Origin: Candidatus Iainarchaeum sp.
GTDB taxonomy: Archaea > Iainarchaeota > Iainarchaeia > Iainarchaeales > Iainarchaeaceae
Direction of reading: 5' to 3'
DNA length: 10,648 bases
NCBI GenBank assembly: GCA_043812975.1
Contig: JBDRLP010000030.1
Location: 1 to 10,648 of the forward strand
The notes below the pieces were generated by a model, which worked only from the letters and a program-made list of their open reading frames with translations, was not told the DNA's origin and did no database searches. This document shows positions 1 through 10,648 of the stretch, in pieces. Each line of letters starts with the position of its first letter. The stretch's first letter is position 1. The translations under genes were made by a program, and so were the position numbers.

Positions 1-16
1 TTCTTTTTTTCCTCAT
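1..16 (-). CDS. Possible 5' end of a divergent gene running off the window (MRKKR...)
   Basis: CAT at 14-16 gives ATG AGG AAA AAA AGA on the - strand, a basic N-terminus like that of a signal or anchor peptide, with TATA-like AT tracts upstream (35-80). Only 5 codons are visible. Confidence 0.35.
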
Positions 17-70
17 TTCAAGCTTTTTTAGACCTTAAAAATAGATACTTTTAAATACTTCTAAAGCAGC

Positions 71-80
71 TATATATAAA
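71..80. promoter_or_regulatory. Archaeal-type TATA box, potentially bidirectional
   Basis: TATATATAAA on + and TTTATATATA on -, matching the TTTAWAWA consensus, in a divergent intergenic region. Confidence 0.5.
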
Positions 81-98
81 GTGGAAATTTTTTTCCAC
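81..98. promoter_or_regulatory. Inverted repeat, candidate transcription-factor operator
   Basis: GTGGAAA-tttt-TTTCCAC has perfect 7-bp arms and directly abuts the TATA box. Confidence 0.5.
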
Positions 99-144
99 GT
101 GAGCCTAATCCCAATTTCTCACAGAATAAATCTTAGCAGGACTT

Positions 145-190
145 GGCCCTTCAAAAGAAGGGCTCGATTTCTTTTATTCTATTTATTTTC
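145..190 (+). terminator. GC-rich hairpin followed by a T-rich tract
   Basis: GCCCTTC(146-152)-AAAA-GAAGGGC(157-163) forms a 7-bp stem, extendable by G145:U164, followed by TTTCTTTTATTCTATTTATTTT. Confidence 0.5.
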
Positions 191-234
191 TAGCTTTGAT
201 TGCAATTCAGTCGCAATAATGCTTATGGTTAGAA

Positions 235-242
235 TTAAATAA
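235..242 (+). promoter_or_regulatory. Putative TATA box for a leaderless transcript of the 264 ORF
   Basis: TTAAATAA is centred ~26 nt upstream of ATG 264, and no Shine-Dalgarno precedes that ATG. Confidence 0.35.
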
Positions 243-263
243 TCGGATATAGTTACTTTTATT

Positions 264-968
264 ATGGGATTAATTAGAAAGAAAAAACACAAGCCGAATA
301 AAGCCGCTAGCAGAAGAATCCGAAGATTAGTTTCTGGTACACGCAGACTTGCGTTAAAACCAATAACTCTTCCGGTTAGGGCTATGGTAGGTACTTTGAG
401 GGTTGTTCCAGGTGCTGTTAGAGGAACATATAAGTATGTTTTGAGACCGCCTGGCAGAGCTATTTCTTTTACTGGTAGAAAAATTCTTTGGCCGTCTGCA
501 CAATTTGCAGGCAAAGAAATTATATGGCCGGCTTCAAGCGAAGTTGTTAGAACTGTTTGGGGTGCTGGAAAAGGGGTTGTAGGTGCAGGTTTTGAAGCCG
601 GAAAAGGTGTTGTTTCAACAATGTGGAAAACTCCTGCTGGAAGATGGGCTCTTGGGGGAGCGGCATTGTTTTTTGTTCCAGGAGTAGGGCAGTTGCTTTT
701 CTCAAAACTTGGGGCTGGTTTAGCAGTTGGATTATTAACAAAGAAGGGCTGGGAAGTAGCCAATGTAAAATGGCAGATGAAAGATGCTGAAGCAACAGGC
801 AGGCTTGGAAGATTATATTATGGTGTTAAAACAATTGGCGGTGACGAACTCACAGGAGAAGGAGGACAAAGATTCTTAGTTACTCTTGATCCAAAAACAG
901 GAGAGGTAAGTCATTCTCCATTTGATTCACCAGAAGCAGAATCCGAACCACTTCCATTGCCAACTTGA
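264..968 (+). CDS. Hypothetical basic, amphipathic membrane-associated protein (234 aa)
   Basis: ATG-started ORF with the same G/T-skewed codon style as its neighbours. It has 22 K/R and no D/E in the first 84 aa, quasi-repeats (ILWP/IIWP, GAGKGVV/EAGKGVV), a Gly-rich hydrophobic hairpin (WALGGAALFFVPGVGQLLFSKLGAGLAVGLL) and an acidic Pro-rich tail. Confidence 0.8.
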   Translation: MGLIRKKKHKPNKAASRRIRRLVSGTRRLALKPITLPVRAMVGTLRVVPGAVRGTYKYVLRPPGRAISFTGRKILWPSAQFAGKEIIWPASSEVVRTVWGAGKGVVGAGFEAGKGVVSTMWKTPAGRWALGGAALFFVPGVGQLLFSKLGAGLAVGLLTKKGWEVANVKWQMKDAEATGRLGRLYYGVKTIGGDELTGEGGQRFLVTLDPKTGEVSHSPFDSPEAESEPLPLPT

Positions 969-1080: not shown

Positions 1081-1683
1081 ATGTCACAGACCAGAACAAT
1101 TGGTTTAGTAGTAATTGCAGTCATAATCCTTGCCGGAGCGTATTTTTTCTTAGGTTTTGATGGGTCTGATTTTGAAGAAGCAAGAGAAGAAATAAATGAA
1201 GTATGGGTTGCGGAAGGTATTAATATTGAAAAAATAGATTTTGATACTTCTGAACAACTTTCTCTAACTAATAATGAACTTGCAGAAATGAAAATCAAGA
1301 TTAATAGGATTAAAAGTAAATACTCTTCTTCTGATGATTCTGAAGCAATAAGTGCTTTTGTAGAAGTGCACTTGAGTTCAGTGCAGATTATTGAAAATAT
1401 TAATTTATTTGTAGAAGCAAGTTATGATTTTGATATTGATACAACAGATGGTGAATCGTTATGTGTAGTTTCCCTTTCTTCCTTTGATGATTTGACTTCT
1501 CTTGGAGATTCAACTGTTTCCAATATAAAAAACCATAATGAAAAAATAACTAGCTTTTCAAGAAATTATTCTAAGGATTATTCAATCAGTGTTTCAAATC
1601 TTTTTATTGAACAAGAATCTTTTGAAGTATCTTTAAAAAATTTAAAAAGCACTAGGAAAAACATTGAGGAGTTGTGTGAATGA
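1081..1683 (+). CDS. A1: N-terminally membrane-anchored acidic helical protein (200 aa), paralog of 4635-5285
   Basis: ATG 1081 with a GGTG SD is preferred over the track's TTG 1069. One TM segment (IGLVVIAVIILAGAYFFL) precedes amphipathic helices and two Cys (SLCVV, terminal EELCE). The stop overlaps the next start (ATGA). Confidence 0.9.
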   Translation: MSQTRTIGLVVIAVIILAGAYFFLGFDGSDFEEAREEINEVWVAEGINIEKIDFDTSEQLSLTNNELAEMKIKINRIKSKYSSSDDSEAISAFVEVHLSSVQIIENINLFVEASYDFDIDTTDGESLCVVSLSSFDDLTSLGDSTVSNIKNHNEKITSFSRNYSKDYSISVSNLFIEQESFEVSLKNLKSTRKNIEELCE

Positions 1684-4622
1684 TAAAAAAAGTTTTTGTG
1701 CTGATTTTTATTCTTTTGATGCTGGCAAATTTTTCTTTTGCTGAAAGGCCTAATCAGGAAGTTTTGAAAAAAATAGATGTTTATAACAGGCCTGGACTTG
1801 CAAAGGACGACTTTATTTTTGTTTTTGAAATTCAGGCTTATATAGATGAGACTGAAACAGGCAATATTTATTTCCTTGATCTTGATGAGGAAAGAGATGA
1901 AGGAATATGGGCAAATGTAAAAGAAATTCTTGAGGATAATTCCGTTGAATCTCCTAGTGATTTGAGAGATCTTTCTTTTGAACAGCATAAAATTAATTTT
2001 GGAAAGTTGGATTTTGAAATTTTAGATAGGGAAAGTGACGGAGATCTTGATGTTCTTTATGAGTTTGACGGAGACAACATTGATTGCTTTAGCCTTTGGG
2101 GTTACGCTGCTTTTAACTTGTATACAACAAAATTCTCTTATTGTGATGATAAGGAAATTCCAGATAATAAAGGTCTGGCAATGGCAAAGCACACCAAAAT
2201 GACAAGTTACACCGGTACTGAAACATTTACTGTTGTTTATGGTACTAAATCAAAAGTAGAAAAGCTTGAAGGAAAAGATTTATCTGAGATTACAACTATT
2301 CTTACCGGGCCTCAACTTGGTTTAAAAAAACTTGAAAAAAAACCAGATCCAGCTCCAGCTCCAGGATTGATAGAAAGGGGTACTGGAGCTGCTTCCGATG
2401 CCGGAGCTTTTGTTGTTGGTGCTGCTGGTGATATAAAAGATTCTGTAGTAAACCGTTATTATGATTGGAAATATGGTCCTACTAATTTTTCATGGGACAA
2501 TCCTGATGAGAAAGATACTATTCTTCTTTCATGGGAACCAATTAGTAATGACGCGGTAAAAGGTTATGTGGTAAAGAGAGAGGATATTTCGAAAGCCCCT
2601 ACAGAAATTAAGTATTATGGTGTTGAGTCAACCAAAAATCTTTACATCTTAAATTCCGGGGAATTTGAGCAGGATGTAATTTATGACTTTACTCTTTTTT
2701 CCTCTATTGTTAATCTTCCAGGAACAGGAGAACTTCCTGAAGCAGCAATTCGCAGTTTAGGTGAAGATCTTAAACAAGGAAAGCCCCAAGTAAGAGTTAA
2801 GGTTACTTCTGAGGAAACAGATGTTGTTCTTGAAAATTTGAAAATTAGGGTGATTGTTGAAGGAAACACCTATATTCCGGATGCTGCTACTAGAGAAATA
2901 TATTTGCCGTATAAAGAGAATATTGCTGTCAGCTTTGAAAATCCAATGGATGGAGTTCCTTATACTATTTCTAAAGAAGATTGCAGGTCAGCTTCAGTTG
3001 GGCCTTCAAGTGCAAAAGTTCTTTTTGTTAACGAATTAACTTCAGATGGCCAGACTTTTTATGCATGTCAGGATAAAGCAAACTTAGTAAACCCTTCTAA
3101 TGCAGGGCTTCAAATAGTTGGTGGAGGTGCAATTCCTGATGGAAAGATTTATTCTGCAACAGATCCTTCTCCTGAGTTTGCATCAGTTGCTTTAAAATTC
3201 AAGCCGCCGATAAGCCACAAACAGCCTTTGTTTGTGAATGAACAACTTCTTAAAGTTGAATTGGAAAACATTAATCCATTGAAAAATATTTTCTTTTCCT
3301 CAGGAAAAACCTGTGAAGTAATCAGACAGGAACTGGATGAAGCATCTATAAAAGCCATTGATGCGAAAAGAAGAGAAACTAGTGCTGATAGAAAAACAAG
3401 GTGGGAGAAGGCGCAGGAAACACTTTCAGCAGGGGTCTCTGTAGTTGGCAATTTCCTTGATTCTGGTTTGGATTGGTTCCATAGAGAAGCGGTTTTATTG
3501 GGTGAAGAAGCTGAAACCGCTACTGTTGGAGAAATACTAGGTTCGAGAGCTGGAAGATCAGGAGCTTTTGTTGTTATAAGTGGAGAGGCTTTTTGGGATA
3601 AGCTGAAGCAAGGGTATGATGCTGCTTTGGATAGTTATGAAGAGGCAAAAGTTGCTGCAAAGGAAAGTTATGCTAACTCGAAAGTTGAGATTCCTGACGA
3701 TGCAATTCCTCTTCCTTTTGATATTTCGATTGAAAAAGTTTATACTCTTGCTCCAAAAGTTTTCAAAGATAGAACAATTTTTTACTTTGGAAAAGTTGAC
3801 GGAACTCCAGTGAAAGCATTAGTTGAGGCTGATACAATTCCTACGATTCATGTTTGTCAGTTTGATGCAGGCTCAATAATTACTATTGAACAGCTTGCAA
3901 TTTTAATAAATCAATCAACATTAGGTTCGGTTGAGACCGATTCTGGCTCTTCTGAACCTGGCTCTCCGAAACTTGATAGCCTCAAAATAAAAAAGGACGG
4001 TGCTTGGGAAGAATATTTAACCAGTCCGCCAAAAGACAGGTGGCTTAACACTTTCGATTACAATCCTAACGATGAAATTTCAGTGCAATTCAAATCAGGG
4101 GATGATTCAAGTGAGATTTATCAGTGGACTCTTGAATTATGGAAACAAAAACCCAGTTCAGTTGAGGAATGTGATGGTGATAAAGAATGTGTTAGGGTTC
4201 AGGTTGAATCTGGAGGCCTAATTGATTCTGCCGGCAAAAAAATAAAGCTCACTAATGCTGATGGTACTCAAATAACAGGGGATGCTCGTAGTACTCTTTT
4301 GGCAACTGCTTCTCCGCACAGCCAGCCAATTCAAAGTGCATTTGTTTTCAAGGGAGACGAACCTGCATGGTATAAGAACAAAAATACTAATCTTAAAGAA
4401 GCAATTGGGGATGCAAAAACTGTTTGGTTAAGGGTTGAGACCTGTCGTTTGCCTGGAGGAGAGGCTGAGTGTAAAAATAATTGGTTGGACTCAACAGCTT
4501 ATGAAATTACTATAGGAGAACCTGAGGAAGAACCAGAACCAGTAATTACAGGATGTAAAACAGTTGCTGAGTGTAAAGCAATATTAGATTTAAAGTTGAT
4601 TAAACAGGTGTTTGGAAAATAA
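1680..4622 (+). CDS. B1: large secreted multidomain surface protein (980 aa) with an FN3-like domain and a C-terminal domain shared with B2
   Basis: Signal peptide MIKKVFVLIFILLMLANFSFA and SD GAGGAG at 1666-1671. FN3-like pattern PTNFSW...TILLSWEP...VKGYVVKR...IYDFTLFS (~2478-2703). aa ~763-980 align by eye with B2 aa ~362-568. The protein ends in GCKTVAECKAILDLKLIKQVFGK. Confidence 0.92.
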   Translation: MIKKVFVLIFILLMLANFSFAERPNQEVLKKIDVYNRPGLAKDDFIFVFEIQAYIDETETGNIYFLDLDEERDEGIWANVKEILEDNSVESPSDLRDLSFEQHKINFGKLDFEILDRESDGDLDVLYEFDGDNIDCFSLWGYAAFNLYTTKFSYCDDKEIPDNKGLAMAKHTKMTSYTGTETFTVVYGTKSKVEKLEGKDLSEITTILTGPQLGLKKLEKKPDPAPAPGLIERGTGAASDAGAFVVGAAGDIKDSVVNRYYDWKYGPTNFSWDNPDEKDTILLSWEPISNDAVKGYVVKREDISKAPTEIKYYGVESTKNLYILNSGEFEQDVIYDFTLFSSIVNLPGTGELPEAAIRSLGEDLKQGKPQVRVKVTSEETDVVLENLKIRVIVEGNTYIPDAATREIYLPYKENIAVSFENPMDGVPYTISKEDCRSASVGPSSAKVLFVNELTSDGQTFYACQDKANLVNPSNAGLQIVGGGAIPDGKIYSATDPSPEFASVALKFKPPISHKQPLFVNEQLLKVELENINPLKNIFFSSGKTCEVIRQELDEASIKAIDAKRRETSADRKTRWEKAQETLSAGVSVVGNFLDSGLDWFHREAVLLGEEAETATVGEILGSRAGRSGAFVVISGEAFWDKLKQGYDAALDSYEEAKVAAKESYANSKVEIPDDAIPLPFDISIEKVYTLAPKVFKDRTIFYFGKVDGTPVKALVEADTIPTIHVCQFDAGSIITIEQLAILINQSTLGSVETDSGSSEPGSPKLDSLKIKKDGAWEEYLTSPPKDRWLNTFDYNPNDEISVQFKSGDDSSEIYQWTLELWKQKPSSVEECDGDKECVRVQVESGGLIDSAGKKIKLTNADGTQITGDARSTLLATASPHSQPIQSAFVFKGDEPAWYKNKNTNLKEAIGDAKTVWLRVETCRLPGGEAECKNNWLDSTAYEITIGEPEEEPEPVITGCKTVAECKAILDLKLIKQVFGK
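3966..4619 (+). repeat. Shared domain copy 1 (protein-level repeat, B1 C-terminus)
   Basis: Colinear motif matches with copy 2: PKLDSLK/PRLNYLK, KDRW/KDRY, DYNPND/DANPNE, QWTLELWK/QYTVELWK, RVQVESG/RIQVASG, VWLRVETC/VWLRIETC, WLDSTAY/WLDSEAY, GCKTVAECKAILDL/GCKTIAECKAILDL. Confidence 0.9.
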
Positions 4623-4634
4623 GGAGGTTTTTGT

Positions 4635-5285
4635 ATGGATAAGAGATTTAAAAATTTGGGAGTAATCATAGCAGTTATTGTTATTATTGCAGTGGTTTAT
4701 GTTTTTGTTCTTCCCGCTTTAGACTCAGGAGTTTCTGGAGGAATGAATTTCAAGGAAGGTGTAACAAAATTAAATCAAATTGTTGAGTCAAAAGGTGTTA
4801 CTATTGAAAGGTTTCAGGAGGGAAAACTTTTTTATTTGAATGATGATGGAACAGTCAAGGATAATTTTTCCGACCCGCAATTTTTGTCTCTAAAAAATTC
4901 TTTTGTTTCCTTCAAGGAAACTTTACCAGCACCAACTTCTTCAATCGATGCTAATGCTTTGAACCAGCTAACGGATCTTTACATTGAACAGATCGAATTA
5001 AACCAAAATAAAAAAAGTATTTTTGATGATTTTCTGGAAATTGATGCTAGCAAGGATTCTCCATGTTCTGTTGTTGTGGATTTGAGAGTTCTTAATGAAA
5101 AAAGAAAATCCTATGAGGCTGATTCGCATATCTTTTTTCTTGATACCTTGATTTTCCTCGGGGACTTTCAGGATTTGGACGGGATAGAACTTTATTACCT
5201 TGATTTTGATTCACAGCAAACATTAGATGAAATTGTCCAGTTGGATGAGGCAATCATTTTGCTTGAGGATTCTTGTCAGGGTTGA
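4635..5285 (+). CDS. A2: N-terminally membrane-anchored acidic helical protein (216 aa), paralog of A1
   Basis: SD GGAGGT at 4623-4628 and TM segment LGVIIAVIVIIAVVYVFVL. Shares the FxE....[IL]N.....G[IV]xIE pattern and two equivalently placed Cys (SPCSVV, terminal EDSCQG) with A1. Confidence 0.9.
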   Translation: MDKRFKNLGVIIAVIVIIAVVYVFVLPALDSGVSGGMNFKEGVTKLNQIVESKGVTIERFQEGKLFYLNDDGTVKDNFSDPQFLSLKNSFVSFKETLPAPTSSIDANALNQLTDLYIEQIELNQNKKSIFDDFLEIDASKDSPCSVVVDLRVLNEKRKSYEADSHIFFLDTLIFLGDFQDLDGIELYYLDFDSQQTLDEIVQLDEAIILLEDSCQG

Positions 5286-5290
5286 TTTGC

Positions 5291-7393
5291 GTGCTGAAAA
5301 AAATATTTATTCTTACTTTACTTTTTGTTTTCATAATTCCAGGTGCTTTTGCTCAGGCTGCAGCACCAGATCCTGCTATATTGAATGCTGCTCTACCAAT
5401 GCTAGATAATTTTCTAAATAATCCAGGAATTCTTAATCCCGCAGCTCCTGATTTTGCTACACAATCTCATGAAATAGGTAAGGCTCTTGGGCAGGTTGTT
5501 GAGGTAGCTGCGGATACTAGTACATCTGTGTCTGAGAGAGGCAGAGCTATGCAAATGCTTTCTCGCTTTAAACAATCAACAAATCCGGCTGTGCAAGGTA
5601 AGTATGGAGAAACTGCCAGGTGGTTTCAAGCCCAATATTCAAATTCTATAAAAGACTTGTCTTCAAGTGCACAGAATCTGGCTAGGCAGGCAGGTAAGCT
5701 TGATGCAAAAACCCTTGCTGCACAGCAGAGAGCTACAGCTATTGCTCCAAACACCCGGCTTTGGGGGACTCAATGGGCTTATAGGATGAGGGAAGCAAAG
5801 GCATTGGGGCAGGCTGCTAATTATAAAGCTCAGGCTGATGCATTAAAAGCAATGTCCGAGGAATCTTCCAAACAGGCTGCAAATGCAAGGTCACAATTAC
5901 AGATTCTTAAAAATTTTGCTCCTGGTAGAGGATTGATGAATTACTTTCGTAGCACAAGGGATTGGACGGTACAAGCATATCAATACAATAAGAATCTTGT
6001 CCAAGGATTCTTTGCCGGTATTCCAGCGTGGTGGGTTGCTTTCAAAGGTTATACTAGTCAGTATGTGTTGACACCTGCAAAAGCAGCGGTTAGTTATACA
6101 GGAGGAGCAATTAGTAGTGGAGCTGCCTATTGGACTACTTATGAGGGGGTAGGACTTGGAGCTGGTTCTGCTTTCGGTGCAGCACAAGTTGCCGGTACAG
6201 CCTTAATAGGACACGTAATAGTTTACAATTCTCTGAAAGCGGTTTTGATTTCTTCGACTGCAGACAAGATACTTTATCCTCCTGATGTTATTGTAGGGAC
6301 CATAATTTACAATCCTGTTTCAAAAAATTACACTTTCAAATACTTGATTGAGCCAAACAGAGAGCTCAATATTGAGCGTTGGGATTATGTGAGAAAATAT
6401 GCTTTTGATTTCAGCGACAAAACAGGTTGGTGGGGCTGGGTTCAGCAGAAGTGGCTTTGGGTTTCTGAATTTTCAAGTTTAAATTTAATTGACATTGGAG
6501 CAGGGGTTGAAACTTGGATGGATGAAACTGAAAGCCTGACTGATTCTGAATTAATTTGGGGTTGCAGGCTCATGGTTTACAAAGTTCAGGAAGGAGCTGA
6601 AGGTCAATTTAAGGAAAGAGATTCGAGTTTTGAACCTGTAATAGTTCCGGTAAAAAATTGTGCTGCCGGCTACAACACTGAGGATGTTGATTTAATGGCT
6701 GCATTGCAAAATCAAACAGGGGAATTTGAAGCAATTATGTTTGTCAACTTTGATCCACGAATAATTTTGTTCTCAGCGGACGTGATTAATGGAAAGGGAG
6801 AATACCAAAATTATGAACGTGAAGTAACATTCCTTCCGATTCCCGGGGCAGGCTCTTCCAGGTCATTTAAAACGAGTTTCAAAGTTAATGCACGTGTATG
6901 GGAGCATGCACTTGATGATTATGCAAGGCAAAGTAACTTGCCGCCTATTGATTTGGCTATAGCAGCACCAACTGATTTTGAGAATGATTACCAAAAAGCA
7001 ATTGATGATTATGAGGGCACGAGAGCGGATGTAATGGCTATTGTTGGAATGCCTTCTTTGCCTCATTACTTTAATGTTAATCGTGGGAATGCTATAATTG
7101 ATTTTCGTAGGTCTCTGAGTGGCGTTGATTATTTTGATACAAAGTTAAATGCTACAAGAAGAGCTACTGCAGGTTCGTTGAAGAGTGGTTTAGTTAGTAT
7201 TGTGAATGTAAATACTGGTGAAGAATATGATATTACTAAAATTAGTTCTAGTATGGGTAACAAGTTTTATCTTATAATGGATGATATTTCTCCGGGAGAA
7301 TACATACTTACCTCTGTCCTTGGGGGGTATAAAGAAGTTAGTTTTAAGTTTACTGTTGAGGAAAAGAATTATGTGAACTGGTTAACTGGGTGA
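5291..7393 (+). CDS. C: secreted protein (~700 aa) with an Ala/Gln-rich helical region, a Gly/Ala-rich hydrophobic segment and a C-terminal Ig-like domain
   Basis: GTG 5291, preceded by GGTTGA, is preferred over TTG 5273 because it gives a clean signal peptide MLKKIFILTLLFVFIIPGAFA|QA. Hydrophobic Gly-rich stretch at ~6005-6250. The C-terminal DISPGEYILTSVLGGYKEVSFKFTVEE resembles the last strands of an Ig-like beta-sandwich. Confidence 0.9.
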   Translation: MLKKIFILTLLFVFIIPGAFAQAAAPDPAILNAALPMLDNFLNNPGILNPAAPDFATQSHEIGKALGQVVEVAADTSTSVSERGRAMQMLSRFKQSTNPAVQGKYGETARWFQAQYSNSIKDLSSSAQNLARQAGKLDAKTLAAQQRATAIAPNTRLWGTQWAYRMREAKALGQAANYKAQADALKAMSEESSKQAANARSQLQILKNFAPGRGLMNYFRSTRDWTVQAYQYNKNLVQGFFAGIPAWWVAFKGYTSQYVLTPAKAAVSYTGGAISSGAAYWTTYEGVGLGAGSAFGAAQVAGTALIGHVIVYNSLKAVLISSTADKILYPPDVIVGTIIYNPVSKNYTFKYLIEPNRELNIERWDYVRKYAFDFSDKTGWWGWVQQKWLWVSEFSSLNLIDIGAGVETWMDETESLTDSELIWGCRLMVYKVQEGAEGQFKERDSSFEPVIVPVKNCAAGYNTEDVDLMAALQNQTGEFEAIMFVNFDPRIILFSADVINGKGEYQNYEREVTFLPIPGAGSSRSFKTSFKVNARVWEHALDDYARQSNLPPIDLAIAAPTDFENDYQKAIDDYEGTRADVMAIVGMPSLPHYFNVNRGNAIIDFRRSLSGVDYFDTKLNATRRATAGSLKSGLVSIVNVNTGEEYDITKISSSMGNKFYLIMDDISPGEYILTSVLGGYKEVSFKFTVEEKNYVNWLTG

Positions 7394-7397
7394 AACA

Positions 7398-10300
7398 ATG
7401 GATAAAAAAAATCTTACACTATTCTTGGTTTTGCTTCTTGCCGTTCCTGCCTATGCTTTCTTGGATATGACTGCAATCACAAGTATTTTGCAGGCTGTTC
7501 AGGCACAGATTACAAGTATTGATTCTGAGGAAGTAAATTCTCTGACCCTTGTTTTTCCTGAAAGTATAAGTGATTCTGATTTACAGGAGATAAATTCTTC
7601 AATTTCTTTTAAGAACAGGGTTCTTGACGAAACTGCAAACAAGGTTGTATTGAATGATGTTTCTCCAAAACCTAATGGCACAATAAACGGCAAGAAAATT
7701 GTTTTCAATCTTAAAATTGGAAGTTACCAAGTTTCTTCTGTAAATTTCAAGCAGCCTTTGGATGTATCTATGACATCTGATCAAACGGTCACGATTAATT
7801 CTGATAATCTTGCTGCAGTAATTGTTGAACCAGGGCTGGAACCGCCTGTTCAGATAGACCCTCCTGAGGTTCCCGTATCTGTTGGAAATATGCCGAGGGA
7901 GATTAAGGTTGAGGATTTTACTTCTCTTTCAGATGGTGTTTTGATTTTTGATCCGAATAATCCGATTGAGTTGGTTAGGGATAAGTATTCTTATCTTCCA
8001 GAAAGCGGTTATGTTGTAACTCAAGAAGGAAAAATAGTAGTAGCCCAGTATGTGTTTTATAAAGAATCAGAAGACAAATATTTTTACACTACCAGTTACC
8101 CGTTTTACCGAGAGCCTTTTCTTTCTAATTTTTTTAGCTGGTCAGACTTAGTTGCTGATGCTCGGAGTGCTACTGAAAAAAATGGACGCTGGAAATATTC
8201 TGTTTCTAATGAACTTTCTGATACTGTTGCTAGTTCGCTTGGTTTGCCAACCAAGGAAGATTATTTTGGCAAGTTTGTTCAATTATTAGATGAGGATTAT
8301 ACCTTTGTTTTTTCTATGAAGAGTGGTACAGATGATACTGTTTACATTGACATTGATTATGTTGCTCTTGTCCCCAGTGATTTAATTGAAGATGATTCAA
8401 GTACAGAGGTTGAGCCTGTTCAGCCTGATGTACCTGAAGAAGATCCTGCTGCGGAAACAGAAGAGTTAAACGTCTGCAAGCCAAGATTAAATTATTTAAA
8501 ATTTGGGCCTAAGGCAACTCCGAGGGATTCTTTAGAAGAAAAGGATCGTTACATTGTTCTTGATGCGAACCCGAACGAGTTTGTTGATTTGGAGTTTAAA
8601 GTTACGAAGTTTGAAGTAACCGGGGTTGCATCTCCTGATATTGAGGAATTTGACTGCCCAATAAAACAATATACTGTAGAGCTCTGGAAGAAGAATCCTG
8701 CTGATGTTGACGATGCGGAAAAAGAAGAAATGAGAATCCAGGTTGCCTCGGGTCAGTCTGGAAGTGCAGGGGAAGAAGATCCTATTAAACAGCCAAAGCA
8801 AAAAGATTTTCCTTTTATTTCAAGTTTTAAAGTAAAATGGCAGAATTCTTATGAAAAAACATTAGGTGAAGCAGTAAAAGACCTTGAATATGTTTGGCTT
8901 AGGATTGAAACCTGTGATGAAAGTGATCCTGCTGCTGATGATGAGTGTGATGGAAAATGGTTGGATTCAGAAGCTTATAAGATTAAAATTGTTGCTCCTA
9001 AGCCAAAGCCTAAACCTGAAGTAGTTGAAGTTAAGGGCTGCAAAACAATAGCAGAGTGCAAAGCAATTCTTGATTTGAGAATGGTTGAACAGGTTTTTGG
9101 GGATATTCCTAGTGGAATTGTTACTGGTACATTAAGTGCTTCATGTAACTTGCCTAGAGAATTGACTCAGGCAGATGTTCAAAATGCTTTTGGTCCTACC
9201 TGTGCGCAATACTTTGGTTTTGTTCAGGACTCTGTTGAACAAACAGGCTTGATAAACAAAGGCTTTGATTCGCTTATGCTTTTCTCGTTGATGCAGGCGG
9301 AAAGTAATTGTAAAATAAATGCCGAAGGGGCATCTGGAAATCCTTATTGTGGTCTTATGCAATTACATTGCACAAATAATTCCAATCTTGAGTGTCCTAA
9401 TGCTTTGAGTCGTTTTGGTAATAATATAGATCGCTTTAATGCCCAGCAAAACATTGCTTGTGGAACTGAACATTTATTGGGGAAATATAGTTATGTTGAG
9501 CCTAAAATATCTGGAAACGCTCTCGAACAAATAATTCCACTCAGCTTTTTATCATATAATCGTGGTCAAGTAGCAGGAGTAAACGCTGCAAGATATTATA
9601 ATAGCGGAGACCCCTTGCATGATGCTATGGTTCAAGGTTGTGTTGATTTACCTAATGAATGGGCGAAAAGACCTGGATTTTGTGGCCAAGGACCTGTGTG
9701 GACACTAGGACAATCCGATACAACTGCTCTTGGTGCTAGATATGCGGAGAAAATAATGTATAATTACATAGCTGCCTGTGAAAAGATTGGTGTAATTTAT
9801 GGTGAGAATTCAAATGAAGTTTCTAGCACAGTTTCTTCTTTGAATTTAGCATGGCCAACCCAAAGCAAAGATGTTATTACTTGCGTTGCAAATTCCAATA
9901 ATCATTCCGGAATTGATATTGGCGGTTCAAAGGTCTTTGATGGAAGTCAACAATCATCAAGAACTGAAGGAGCAATAGGAATGCCAATATTTGCAATTGC
10001 AGATGGAACTGTTGTTGATATTAAAGATGGTTGTCCTCCTAGTGGATTTGGAACCAATTGTGGTCCAAGACCTTCAGCGAGTTATGGAAATACTGCTGTG
10101 ATTAAGTTTGATGGTTTGGAAGGGTATTTTGTTTACGCTCACTTGAAGAATAATATTTCAAAATCAAAAAACCAAAAAGTTATAAGTGGAGAACAGATAG
10201 CTGAAATGGGTACAAGTGGTTATGCAGGAGAACCACATTTGCATATTACTTGGGTAAAAGACGAATCATTTTATTCTAATAATACTTTCAATTACAATTT

Positions 10301-10403
10301 TTCATTAGCTAACACAGAAAATCCGCTTTCTCTTTTTGATGCAAGTCAGTACAATTTGATTTCATCAAGAGGTGGCGTCAGCTCAGGAACTTGTACAACC
10401 TAA
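7398..10403 (+). CDS. B2: secreted modular peptidoglycan hydrolase (1001 aa) with an SLT/GH23 lytic transglycosylase and an M23 zinc metallopeptidase
   Basis: Signal peptide MDKKNLTLFLVLLLAVPAYA, with SD GGTGA overlapping the previous stop. SLT motifs: QAES (Glu635, 9300), GLMQ (9351), NIACGTEHL, SYNRG (9552), RYAEKI (9738). M23 motifs: WP, HSGID (9903), PIFAIADGTV, YGN, YAHL (10134), MGTSG...PHLH (10236), NPL. Confidence 0.93.
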   Translation: MDKKNLTLFLVLLLAVPAYAFLDMTAITSILQAVQAQITSIDSEEVNSLTLVFPESISDSDLQEINSSISFKNRVLDETANKVVLNDVSPKPNGTINGKKIVFNLKIGSYQVSSVNFKQPLDVSMTSDQTVTINSDNLAAVIVEPGLEPPVQIDPPEVPVSVGNMPREIKVEDFTSLSDGVLIFDPNNPIELVRDKYSYLPESGYVVTQEGKIVVAQYVFYKESEDKYFYTTSYPFYREPFLSNFFSWSDLVADARSATEKNGRWKYSVSNELSDTVASSLGLPTKEDYFGKFVQLLDEDYTFVFSMKSGTDDTVYIDIDYVALVPSDLIEDDSSTEVEPVQPDVPEEDPAAETEELNVCKPRLNYLKFGPKATPRDSLEEKDRYIVLDANPNEFVDLEFKVTKFEVTGVASPDIEEFDCPIKQYTVELWKKNPADVDDAEKEEMRIQVASGQSGSAGEEDPIKQPKQKDFPFISSFKVKWQNSYEKTLGEAVKDLEYVWLRIETCDESDPAADDECDGKWLDSEAYKIKIVAPKPKPKPEVVEVKGCKTIAECKAILDLRMVEQVFGDIPSGIVTGTLSASCNLPRELTQADVQNAFGPTCAQYFGFVQDSVEQTGLINKGFDSLMLFSLMQAESNCKINAEGASGNPYCGLMQLHCTNNSNLECPNALSRFGNNIDRFNAQQNIACGTEHLLGKYSYVEPKISGNALEQIIPLSFLSYNRGQVAGVNAARYYNSGDPLHDAMVQGCVDLPNEWAKRPGFCGQGPVWTLGQSDTTALGARYAEKIMYNYIAACEKIGVIYGENSNEVSSTVSSLNLAWPTQSKDVITCVANSNNHSGIDIGGSKVFDGSQQSSRTEGAIGMPIFAIADGTVVDIKDGCPPSGFGTNCGPRPSASYGNTAVIKFDGLEGYFVYAHLKNNISKSKNQKVISGEQIAEMGTSGYAGEPHLHITWVKDESFYSNNTFNYNFSLANTENPLSLFDASQYNLISSRGGVSSGTCTT
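8481..9101 (+). repeat. Shared domain copy 2 (protein-level repeat, B2 middle)
   Basis: Same colinear motifs as 3966-4619, located immediately before the SLT domain. Confidence 0.9.
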
Positions 10404-10436: not shown

Positions 10437-10523
10437 CTTATGGAAAAGATGAATAAACAGCTTTCCAAAAGCACTCTCTCAGATAAAGAAACAACAGAAT
10501 TGGGTAAGAAGGTTAAGCAAGCA
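10437..10523 (+). pseudogene. Probable remnant (C-terminal half) of a small archaeal ribbon-helix-helix/VapB-like antitoxin
   Basis: Translates LMEKMNKQLSKSTLSDKETTELGKKVKQA, resembling from memory the '..M.KLLSKS.LT..DA.ELG.K.K' tail of archaeal CopG-type antitoxins. An in-frame TAG at 10434-10436 removes any N-terminal DNA-binding part. Confidence 0.4.
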
Positions 10524-10648
10524 TTTTTTCAATTTTTGTTCTTGTTTGTTTGTTAGTTTGTTTCAAATATTTTTCCAGCTTTTTTTTGTCAATAATTTTT
10601 TTCATTTCTTCAATTGTTTCTTTTCCAATCGGCTCATCATAATATGCA
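10513..10648 (-). CDS. 3' end of a convergent gene, possibly an AbiEi-like (type IV TA antitoxin) transcriptional regulator
   Basis: Open frame AYYDEPIGKETIEEMKKIIDKKKLEKYLKQTNKQTRTKIEKMLA* with the stop at 10513-10515. The 'ID.KKL..YL' tail recalls AbiEi-like C-termini. The CDS is likely real but the family call is weak. Confidence 0.6.
   Translation of the reverse strand, partial: AYYDEPIGKETIEEMKKIIDKKKLEKYLKQTNKQTRTKIEKMLA

Follow-up and report, generated by a model that had tools for sequence, protein, structure and literature searches.

An exported operon built around a predicted dual murein hydrolase in a genome of Candidatus Iainarchaeum

What use would an archaeon, an organism without murein of its own, have for an enzyme that cuts the bacterial cell wall, and for the set of exported proteins encoded with it? 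The question is raised by a stretch of 10,648 nucleotides from Candidatus Iainarchaeum sp. (the window), which is the entire contig JBDRLP010000030.1 (contig C30) of assembly GCA_043812975.1, a 94%-complete genome of 1.24 Mb in 68 contigs (G000). Five tightly packed genes of its forward strand, A1, B1, A2, C and B2, encode exported proteins, the last of them a predicted murein hydrolase. Wall hydrolases in a murein-less organism are a rare genomic hint that the partner of a DPANN archaeon could be a bacterium. In our best explanation, to which we assign a probability of about 0.55, the window encodes a surface-associated, bacteria-directed set of exported proteins built around this hydrolase. 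The genes and domains that carry the argument are as follows.

1081-1683, + strand: A1, predicted single-pass membrane anchor of 200 amino acids
1680-4622, + strand: B1, predicted secreted protein of 980 amino acids; 4-nucleotide ATGA overlap with A1
3942-4619, + strand: C-terminal shared module of B1, a predicted beta-sandwich, a Pro/Glu linker and then a Cys-helix motif
4635-5285, + strand: A2, paralogue of A1 and predicted membrane anchor of 216 amino acids; 12-nucleotide gap after B1
5282-7393, + strand: C, TTG start, predicted secreted protein of 703 amino acids; 4-nucleotide overlap with A2
7398-10403, + strand: B2, predicted secreted protein of 1001 amino acids; 4-nucleotide gap after C
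8475-9104, + strand: shared module of B2 (residues 360-569; AlphaFold2 pLDDT 78.7)
9261-9587, + strand: SLT domain of B2, GH23-type lytic transglycosylase (residues 622-730; Pfam PF01464, E 6.6e-5)
9969-10262, + strand: M23 metallopeptidase domain of B2 (Pfam PF01551, E 1e-11)

B2 is built of an N-terminal region, a module shared with B1, the SLT domain and the M23 domain. The SLT match is marginal (22.9 bits against a Pfam cut-off of 21.3, with no listing in the whole-genome scan); the domain has A-E635-S636, GLMQ at residues 652-655 and YNRG at 720-723, corresponding to E-S, GLMQ and YNxG, which we take to be the motifs of the family, with the glutamate of E-S as catalytic residue. The M23 match reaches 45.3 bits against a cut-off of 28.7, and 49.5 bits in the whole-genome scan, and PDB entry 9gy1 is matched at E 1.5e-5; H836-SGI-D840, H915 and H947-L-H949 are in place, the HxxxD and HxH elements being presumably the zinc ligands. 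With both domains above their cut-offs and the catalytic motifs intact, B2 is predicted from its sequence to be a dual murein hydrolase, as an initial annotation of the window had proposed. No small co-directional gene follows B2 in the position of an immunity gene; a T-rich spacer leads to a convergent AbiE pair. Elsewhere in the genome (G000:C26:16667-16963) a second, small SLT protein was seen, of 277 amino acids, whose N-terminus is basic and which has a single hydrophobic segment and a linker rich in Pro and Lys; similar SLT genes of about 250-320 codons occur in the related genomes G002-G005.

The module common to B1 and B2, which had also been noticed at the outset, is confirmed by 36% identity between residues 763-979 of B1 and 362-568 of B2 (E 1e-31, about 220 residues). 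In the alignment, a beta core bracketed by cysteines leads through a linker rich in Pro and Glu to the motif GCKT(I/V)AECKAxLDLKFIxxVF, so that the module ends in a Cys-containing helix (GCKTIAECKAILDL..VF). In B1 the motif (GCKTVAECKAILDLKLIKQVFGK, nucleotides 4551-4619) is the end of the protein; in B2 (nucleotides 9033-9101) it is internal and forms the junction to the enzyme domains. In the AlphaFold2 model of the B2 module (pLDDT 78.7, pTM 0.72) a helix that spans the motif comes after a beta-sandwich; Foldseek returned no PDB match for it at E <= 0.001. The remainder of B1 is beta-rich, with a weak FN3-like stretch at about residues 285-354 (PDB matches of FN3 type, E 0.029). No catalytic or enzyme domain was matched in B1 in Pfam, PHROGs, NCBIfam or the PDB, in agreement with the non-catalytic role first given to it, and its Atlas matches, all below 0.9, lead to adhesin-type beta-sandwiches only. 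Gene conversion between the motif regions of B1 and B2 was considered and rejected, the two being 77% identical over about 200 nucleotides around the motif without long exact repeats; since such repeats are lacking, recent cassette exchange within G000 is not evident either. Both module genes and both A genes of G000 occur only in the window.

The company that the module keeps in other proteins points towards the bacterial wall. Among 1.84 billion representative proteins, a profile of B1 picked out 15, five of which continue for at least 100 residues past the motif; in four of these five the continuation carries a murein hydrolase (SLT, Amidase_3, Amidase_3 with Glucosaminidase, or M23), and one has GH3 in front as well. 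The rest end a few residues past the motif, often with a Lys-rich tail. Of 215 genomes in the phylum, 38 have a match to the module profile (18 of the 58 of high quality); most matches span the motif alone, in the form that it has elsewhere, CxxCxT(I/V)xxCLAC(I/V)DxKFVxGVF. Twenty loci fetched across the phylum hold 21 motif-bearing open reading frames (ORFs). The motif is terminal in 12 and followed by further sequence in nine, a Pfam murein hydrolase is present in seven, and in one genome family proteins of 1150-1540 amino acids place SLT just ahead of the terminal motif. At three loci (L066, L067 and L070, from G016, G015 and G012) the part beyond the motif ends in a CAP/SCP-like region, which scores 20.9 bits in L066 against a cut-off of 21.1.

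Further evidence comes from close relatives. The order X-A1-B1-A2-C, X being a gene at the head of the cluster that is described below, is found on single contigs of two congeneric genomes, beside GMP synthase in G003 and beside the proteasome ATPase PAN and an M50 peptidase in G005. The operon proteins of G000 and G003 are 38% (A1), 48% (B1), 36% (A2) and 30% (C) identical, against 74% for a flanking protein of 703 amino acids and 89% for GMP synthase; for G005 the values are 31%, 34%, 36% and 27%, against 74% for PAN and 60% for M50. The operon diverges much faster than the genes on either side of it. Downstream of C, the relatives differ in content. G005 has a protein of 506 amino acids, a third A gene, a protein of 670 and a terminal protein of 646 amino acids, in which the end of the shared module, motif included, is combined with Amidase_3 (E 3.5e-16) and a sub-threshold Glucosaminidase (GH73-like) tail. 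In G003, CBM4_9, M23, GH3, the shared module and Amidase_3 are combined in one protein of 1766 or more amino acids, after whose gene comes the AbiE pair seen in G000; contigs C8 and C4 of G003 share no end overlap, and their adjacency is taken from synteny only. The locus of G004 consists of an X-like gene, an A-like gene and genes for proteins of 1282 and 411 amino acids, the latter ending with the module. To judge from these domains, the enzyme predicted on the shared module differs between close relatives: SLT plus M23 in G000, Amidase_3 in G005, and M23, GH3 and Amidase_3 in G003. With further kinds of murein hydrolase on this module in the relatives, the gene set is tied to peptidoglycan hydrolysis more firmly than was known when the window was first annotated. 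A locus from a metagenome scan is not counted as independent, since it is 99.99% identical to the G005 contig.

The second recurrent element is the family to which A1 and A2 belong. The two are barely alike when compared directly (E 0.006); one family profile matches them at E 1.6e-53 and E 8.5e-57, and joins to them 24 other ORFs of about 200 codons in the fetched loci. An alignment of 24 sequences has two invariant cysteines (C128 and C199 in A1), one of them at the extreme C-terminus. The AlphaFold2 model of A1 (pLDDT 90.7) has a transmembrane helix at residues 3-24 and an all-helical ectodomain folded as a helical bundle. Foldseek gave no PDB match for A1 at E <= 0.001, and the best hit of a wide structural search (spectrin repeats, Z 9.3) lies under the noise bar for helical proteins. 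The family is outside Pfam, the single match being that of A2 to DUF4179 (E 0.058), under the cut-off. It is present in 110 of the 215 genomes, in one to five copies each, and in the fetched loci its genes stand directly upstream of genes for large secreted proteins. Two layouts recur: an A gene, a protein of about 340 amino acids, a further A gene and an SLT or motif protein; and an A gene, a protein of about 650-770 amino acids and a motif protein, which matches A2-C-B2. In G026 an A gene overlaps that of a 2291-residue protein with Amidase_2, SLT and the module. By hand tally, at least 26 of 43 motif sites have an A match within 5 kb on the same contig, a lower bound in that 48 A matches were not on the list. 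Among the other sites, several lie on contigs 2-3 kb long. Beside the A/SLT cassettes of one family (f2; L059-L061, L063, L065 and L068), a trio of secreted proteins of about 190-270, 590-740 and 830 amino acids with Ig-like Cep192-type matches was observed on the other strand, and a TrmB-family regulator beside the SLT gene.

Two further features complete the cluster.

264-968, + strand: X, 234 amino acids, very basic (net charge +22), central Gly/Ala-rich hydrophobic stretch, no signal peptide; heads the cluster
969-1080, + strand: intergenic region, AT-rich, with TATA-like runs and GGTG before A1, as read from the sequence

Homologues of X hold the same position in G003 (269 amino acids), in G005 (318) and probably in G004 (210), so that X is a sixth conserved gene of the cluster, a basic membrane protein; it matches no family in Pfam, PHROGs or NCBIfam. 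An ORF of 194 codons on the minus strand (window 179-763) overlaps X and is probably not a gene, because X has homologues in G003 and G005. The intergenic region 969-1080 is probably the operon promoter. Shine-Dalgarno-like sequences (GGTG, GAGGAG, AGGAGG, GAGGA and GGGTG) can be read 5-11 nucleotides before the starts of A1 to B2, C having alternative starts at TTG 5273 and GTG 5291. All five proteins from A1 to B2 have an N-terminal hydrophobic segment by hydropathy; those of A1 and A2 look like uncleaved anchors, and those of B1, C and B2 like Sec signal peptides. The layout described at first, of five co-directional and closely packed genes each with a Shine-Dalgarno sequence and a signal or anchor peptide, is hence retained.

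Protein C had been described as membrane-inserting-like, and this description is not supported. The N-terminal half of C is rich in Ala and Gln and the C-terminal half in beta structure, with a semi-hydrophobic, Gly/Ala-rich stretch at residues 290-327. Inside the protein only one stretch is hydrophobic; its Kyte-Doolittle peak of 1.46 falls short of 1.6, and the G005 homologue has not kept it. No match to C was obtained in Pfam, PHROGs, NCBIfam or a PDB profile search, and no usable one in the Atlas, where its model has a pLDDT of 0.47; compared with what is expected of pore-forming toxins, C has neither a match to a known family nor a conserved membrane-spanning segment. Among 5.8 billion proteins C found only itself. 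Searched as a single protein it occurs in 3 of 61 relatives (G000, G003 and G005), and as a profile in 3 of the 215 genomes, with one additional match of 16 bits; it is confined to three of the six genomes of one genus.

Whether the host is truly an archaeon was looked at as well, since the proposal would fail if the contig were bacterial or phage DNA. TBP and an archaeal small-subunit (16S) rRNA are present in the G000 genome, and the two contig ends (window 1-141 and 10508-10648) share exact overlaps of 141 nucleotides with contigs C21 and C58. On the C21 side lie a Cys-rich protein of 703 amino acids, GMP synthase, Fic and a HerA-like ATPase; on the C58 side lie the AbiE pair, PAN, HEPN/MNT, the M50 peptidase and FtsZ. 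No relative of B1 was found among 2.9 million viral contigs; matches to PHROGs are limited to the M23 part of B2 (phage endolysin and tape-measure families), and no other phage family is matched. The window holds no Rfam family. No PBP transpeptidase was found in the 94%-complete genome, and for its sole gene of Mur-ligase type the family also gives matches in a methanogen and a haloarchaeon taken as controls. The evidence points to an archaeal chromosome, as had been supposed: the locus is a chromosomal, fast-evolving one of a DPANN archaeon with a small genome.

Several observations concern the surroundings. The 703-residue protein (G000:C21:438-2549) lies on the opposite strand just upstream of the window and contains 45 cysteines; its N-terminus (LLSTSGC) resembles a lipobox. 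It shares 74% identity with its G003 counterpart and belongs to no Pfam family. Farther out, some 6 kb upstream and past GMP synthase and Fic, G000:C21:6085-9186 encodes a HerA/DUF87 ATPase of 1033 amino acids with a C-terminal TrmB-like stretch. The window itself has no secretion or pilus ATPase and no pilins. Directly downstream of B2 and convergent with the operon is the AbiEii pair (G000:C58:6-1219), and further on a HEPN/nucleotidyltransferase pair (G000:C58:2605-3281), both of toxin-antitoxin type. Exact overlaps like those of the two window ends were seen at 37 of the 136 contig ends of the bin. To either side of the locus the assembly graph is branched, a pattern compatible with variation of the locus between strains. 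A Glucosamine_iso-family domain in an ORF of 557 codons and a single Mur_ligase_M gene were noted at G000:C13:6288-6920 and G000:C42:8425-9075.

How might such a set of proteins work? In the explanation that we favour, the A proteins would hold the large proteins at the membrane or hand them over, and the shared module would be a common handle, serving for docking or for binding to the wall. B1 would be a non-catalytic adhesin or spacer, and B2 would cut both the glycan strands and the peptide cross-links of a bacterium touched by the archaeon, which could in this way attach itself, reach fragments of the wall or what the cell contains, or do both. C would be a genus-specific accessory protein. 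Fast divergence and domain swapping fit an arms race with bacterial targets or a changing range of them, and from the enzymes that differ among natural variants of the site, differences in target might be predicted. The locus offers testable parts, namely an assayable enzyme in B2 and a carrier module and an anchor family for binding. Of the model first drawn up for the window, the archaeon, the synteny (at the same chromosomal site in G003 and G005), the dual hydrolase and the non-catalytic B1 are kept; the membrane insertion by C, the physical complex and the perforation of a membrane are not supported and stay conjectural.

A number of results weigh against this explanation. The fold of the module appears to be a generic, ordinary beta-sandwich: in a wide structural search its best match (a chitinase FN3-like domain; Z 7.0, root-mean-square deviation 2.7, 91 residues aligned) is tied with many Ig, FN3 and CBM entries. 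Twelve of the 21 motif-bearing ORFs have no recognised domain, one carries Lon_C and one a sub-threshold CAP domain, so that the module is not exclusive to wall hydrolases. A genes also precede genes for proteins without the motif (C here, and proteins of 330-770 amino acids elsewhere), and the motif may for this reason not be what A recognises. A contact between A and its cargo is suggested by gene order only, a predicted complex of the A1 ectodomain with the C-terminal module of B1 scoring 0.02 against a mark of 0.32, which is evidence neither way. No hydrolase was detected in the G004 version of the locus, and AnmK, a marker of the use of anhydro-muropeptides, was not found in the genome. 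A wider proposition is that of a lineage-wide system of surface display in the Iainarchaeota, in which an A anchor presents large secreted Cys-helix proteins, with interchangeable bacteriolytic enzymes as main cargo, in archaea that live on or off bacteria; we hold it tentatively and would sooner doubt it. If it were true, it would mean episymbiosis or predation across domains, on bacteria rather than on archaea, with a hypervariable locus that tracks the wall chemistry of the prey.

Other explanations need not involve an attack on a living neighbour at the cell surface. The enzymes, released or at the surface, could act on free peptidoglycan and dead cells and so supply an auxotrophic archaeon of small genome with amino sugars and peptides, leaving living bacteria unattacked. 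The relatives add GH3 (NagZ-type) and amidases, which together would degrade murein to monomers, a Glucosamine_iso-family gene is present in the genome, and the Iainarchaeota are considered possibly free-living in one report (PMC10936187). We nevertheless judge such scavenging rather improbable: the missing AnmK tells against it too, N-terminal anchors and very large beta-sandwich proteins suit surface display better than diffusing enzymes, and fast divergence is unexpected for enzymes that work on a chemically uniform substrate. B2 could instead be released and kill competing bacteria at a distance, in the manner of a bacteriocin, as the haloarchaeal M23 proteins Woldo and Danwoldo do. According to the report on these, modular M23 hydrolases of archaea need no other protein to kill bacteria, but the two are small and stand-alone, with PG_binding_1 (PMC12352652); B2 is the last gene of a conserved six-gene operon with anchors and a non-catalytic paralogue, and a weapon of this type seems unlikely here. 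More unlikely yet is the model in which C inserts into the exposed bacterial membrane after wall digestion and perforates it. C is secreted, its N-terminal half looks helical, and within the genus it always lies between A2 and the hydrolase gene; yet the stretch at 290-327 that might serve has the low and unconserved hydropathy given above, no pore-forming family, PDB entry or Atlas cluster is matched, and C is limited to three genomes, whereas cassettes of A plus hydrolase are found phylum-wide without it.

The substrate and the origin of the DNA have also been weighed. It is quite improbable that the hydrolase domains act on something other than murein, in the archaeon's own envelope or in that of an archaeal host. 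Known DPANN hosts are mostly archaea, and SLT genes are common in the phylum (SLT domains in 62 of the 215 genomes), including the small one conserved in the genus; against this, five murein-specific families recur on the module (SLT, M23, Amidase_3, Amidase_2 and a GH73-like one), no PBP was found, and the known pseudomurein-cleaving enzymes belong to other families. That the window is mis-binned bacterial or phage DNA, with a hydrolase for self-remodelling or lysis, might be suggested by the PHROG matches of the M23 part and by the breaks at both contig ends. This is very unlikely indeed and scarcely credible, because TBP and the archaeal rRNA are present, the 141-nucleotide overlaps join the window to contigs that carry PAN and FtsZ, two other archaeal metagenome-assembled genomes have the operon on single contigs, in the interval from GMP synthase to PAN/M50, and neither a viral relative nor any other phage family was found.

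The favoured explanation, a surface-associated set directed at bacteria, can be compared with systems already known. Polymorphic toxin systems of the CdiA, Rhs and LXG types have a conserved N-terminal part, a short junction motif and a variable C-terminal enzyme. The locus resembles them in its variable C-terminal domain after a conserved junction motif and in a paralogue, B1, that ends at the junction; it differs in that neither a dedicated secretion machinery nor an immunity gene is present, and a producer that lacks the substrate would have no need of the latter. Display of the cohesin-dockerin or SLH type is a functional analogy only: there too an anchored partner is encoded beside enzymes that have a common short module, but the A family and the module have no relation to those proteins in sequence or fold, and binding between them is putative. 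The A family and the Cys-helix module are two unannotated families that mark such loci across the phylum.

The initial annotation did not recognise the architecture as a named system. For the operon this agrees with the literature searched, supplements aside, in which we found neither the operon described, nor the A family, the Cys-helix module or a swapping of enzymes at a single locus; the wider idea is already in print, as large extracellular SLT proteins of DPANN archaea have been interpreted as tools against bacterial walls in three reports (PMC8204110, fam00969, 2021; Vigneron et al. 2022, PMC9723730; PMC10936187). Going by their descriptions there, those murein transglycosylase proteins and B2 are alike in being large, secreted, SLT-bearing and of DPANN origin. 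Binding to or degradation of bacterial walls has been proposed for them, with possible episymbiosis or predation on bacteria. They are reported as single proteins, mostly from Woesearchaeota and Pacearchaeota; the locus described here differs in its predicted dual SLT and M23 enzyme, its operon with an anchor family, its non-catalytic paralogue, its Cys-helix carrier module and its enzyme swapping. Woldo and Danwoldo, modular M23 peptidoglycan hydrolases of Halogranum salarium, are experimentally bactericidal; according to their report (PMC12352652) they share with B2 an archaeal host, secretion, an M23 domain of bacterial origin, a modular build, replaced catalytic domains and a patchy distribution, and B2 departs from them in its unrelated beta-sandwich and Cys-helix, its added SLT domain and its six-gene operon. 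A further likeness is to Vampirococcus lugosii, which according to its description (PMC8080830) combines an ultrasmall cell and a reduced genome with peptidoglycan-degrading enzymes and epibiotic feeding; it is a bacterium with a wall of its own, unlike the archaeon considered here.

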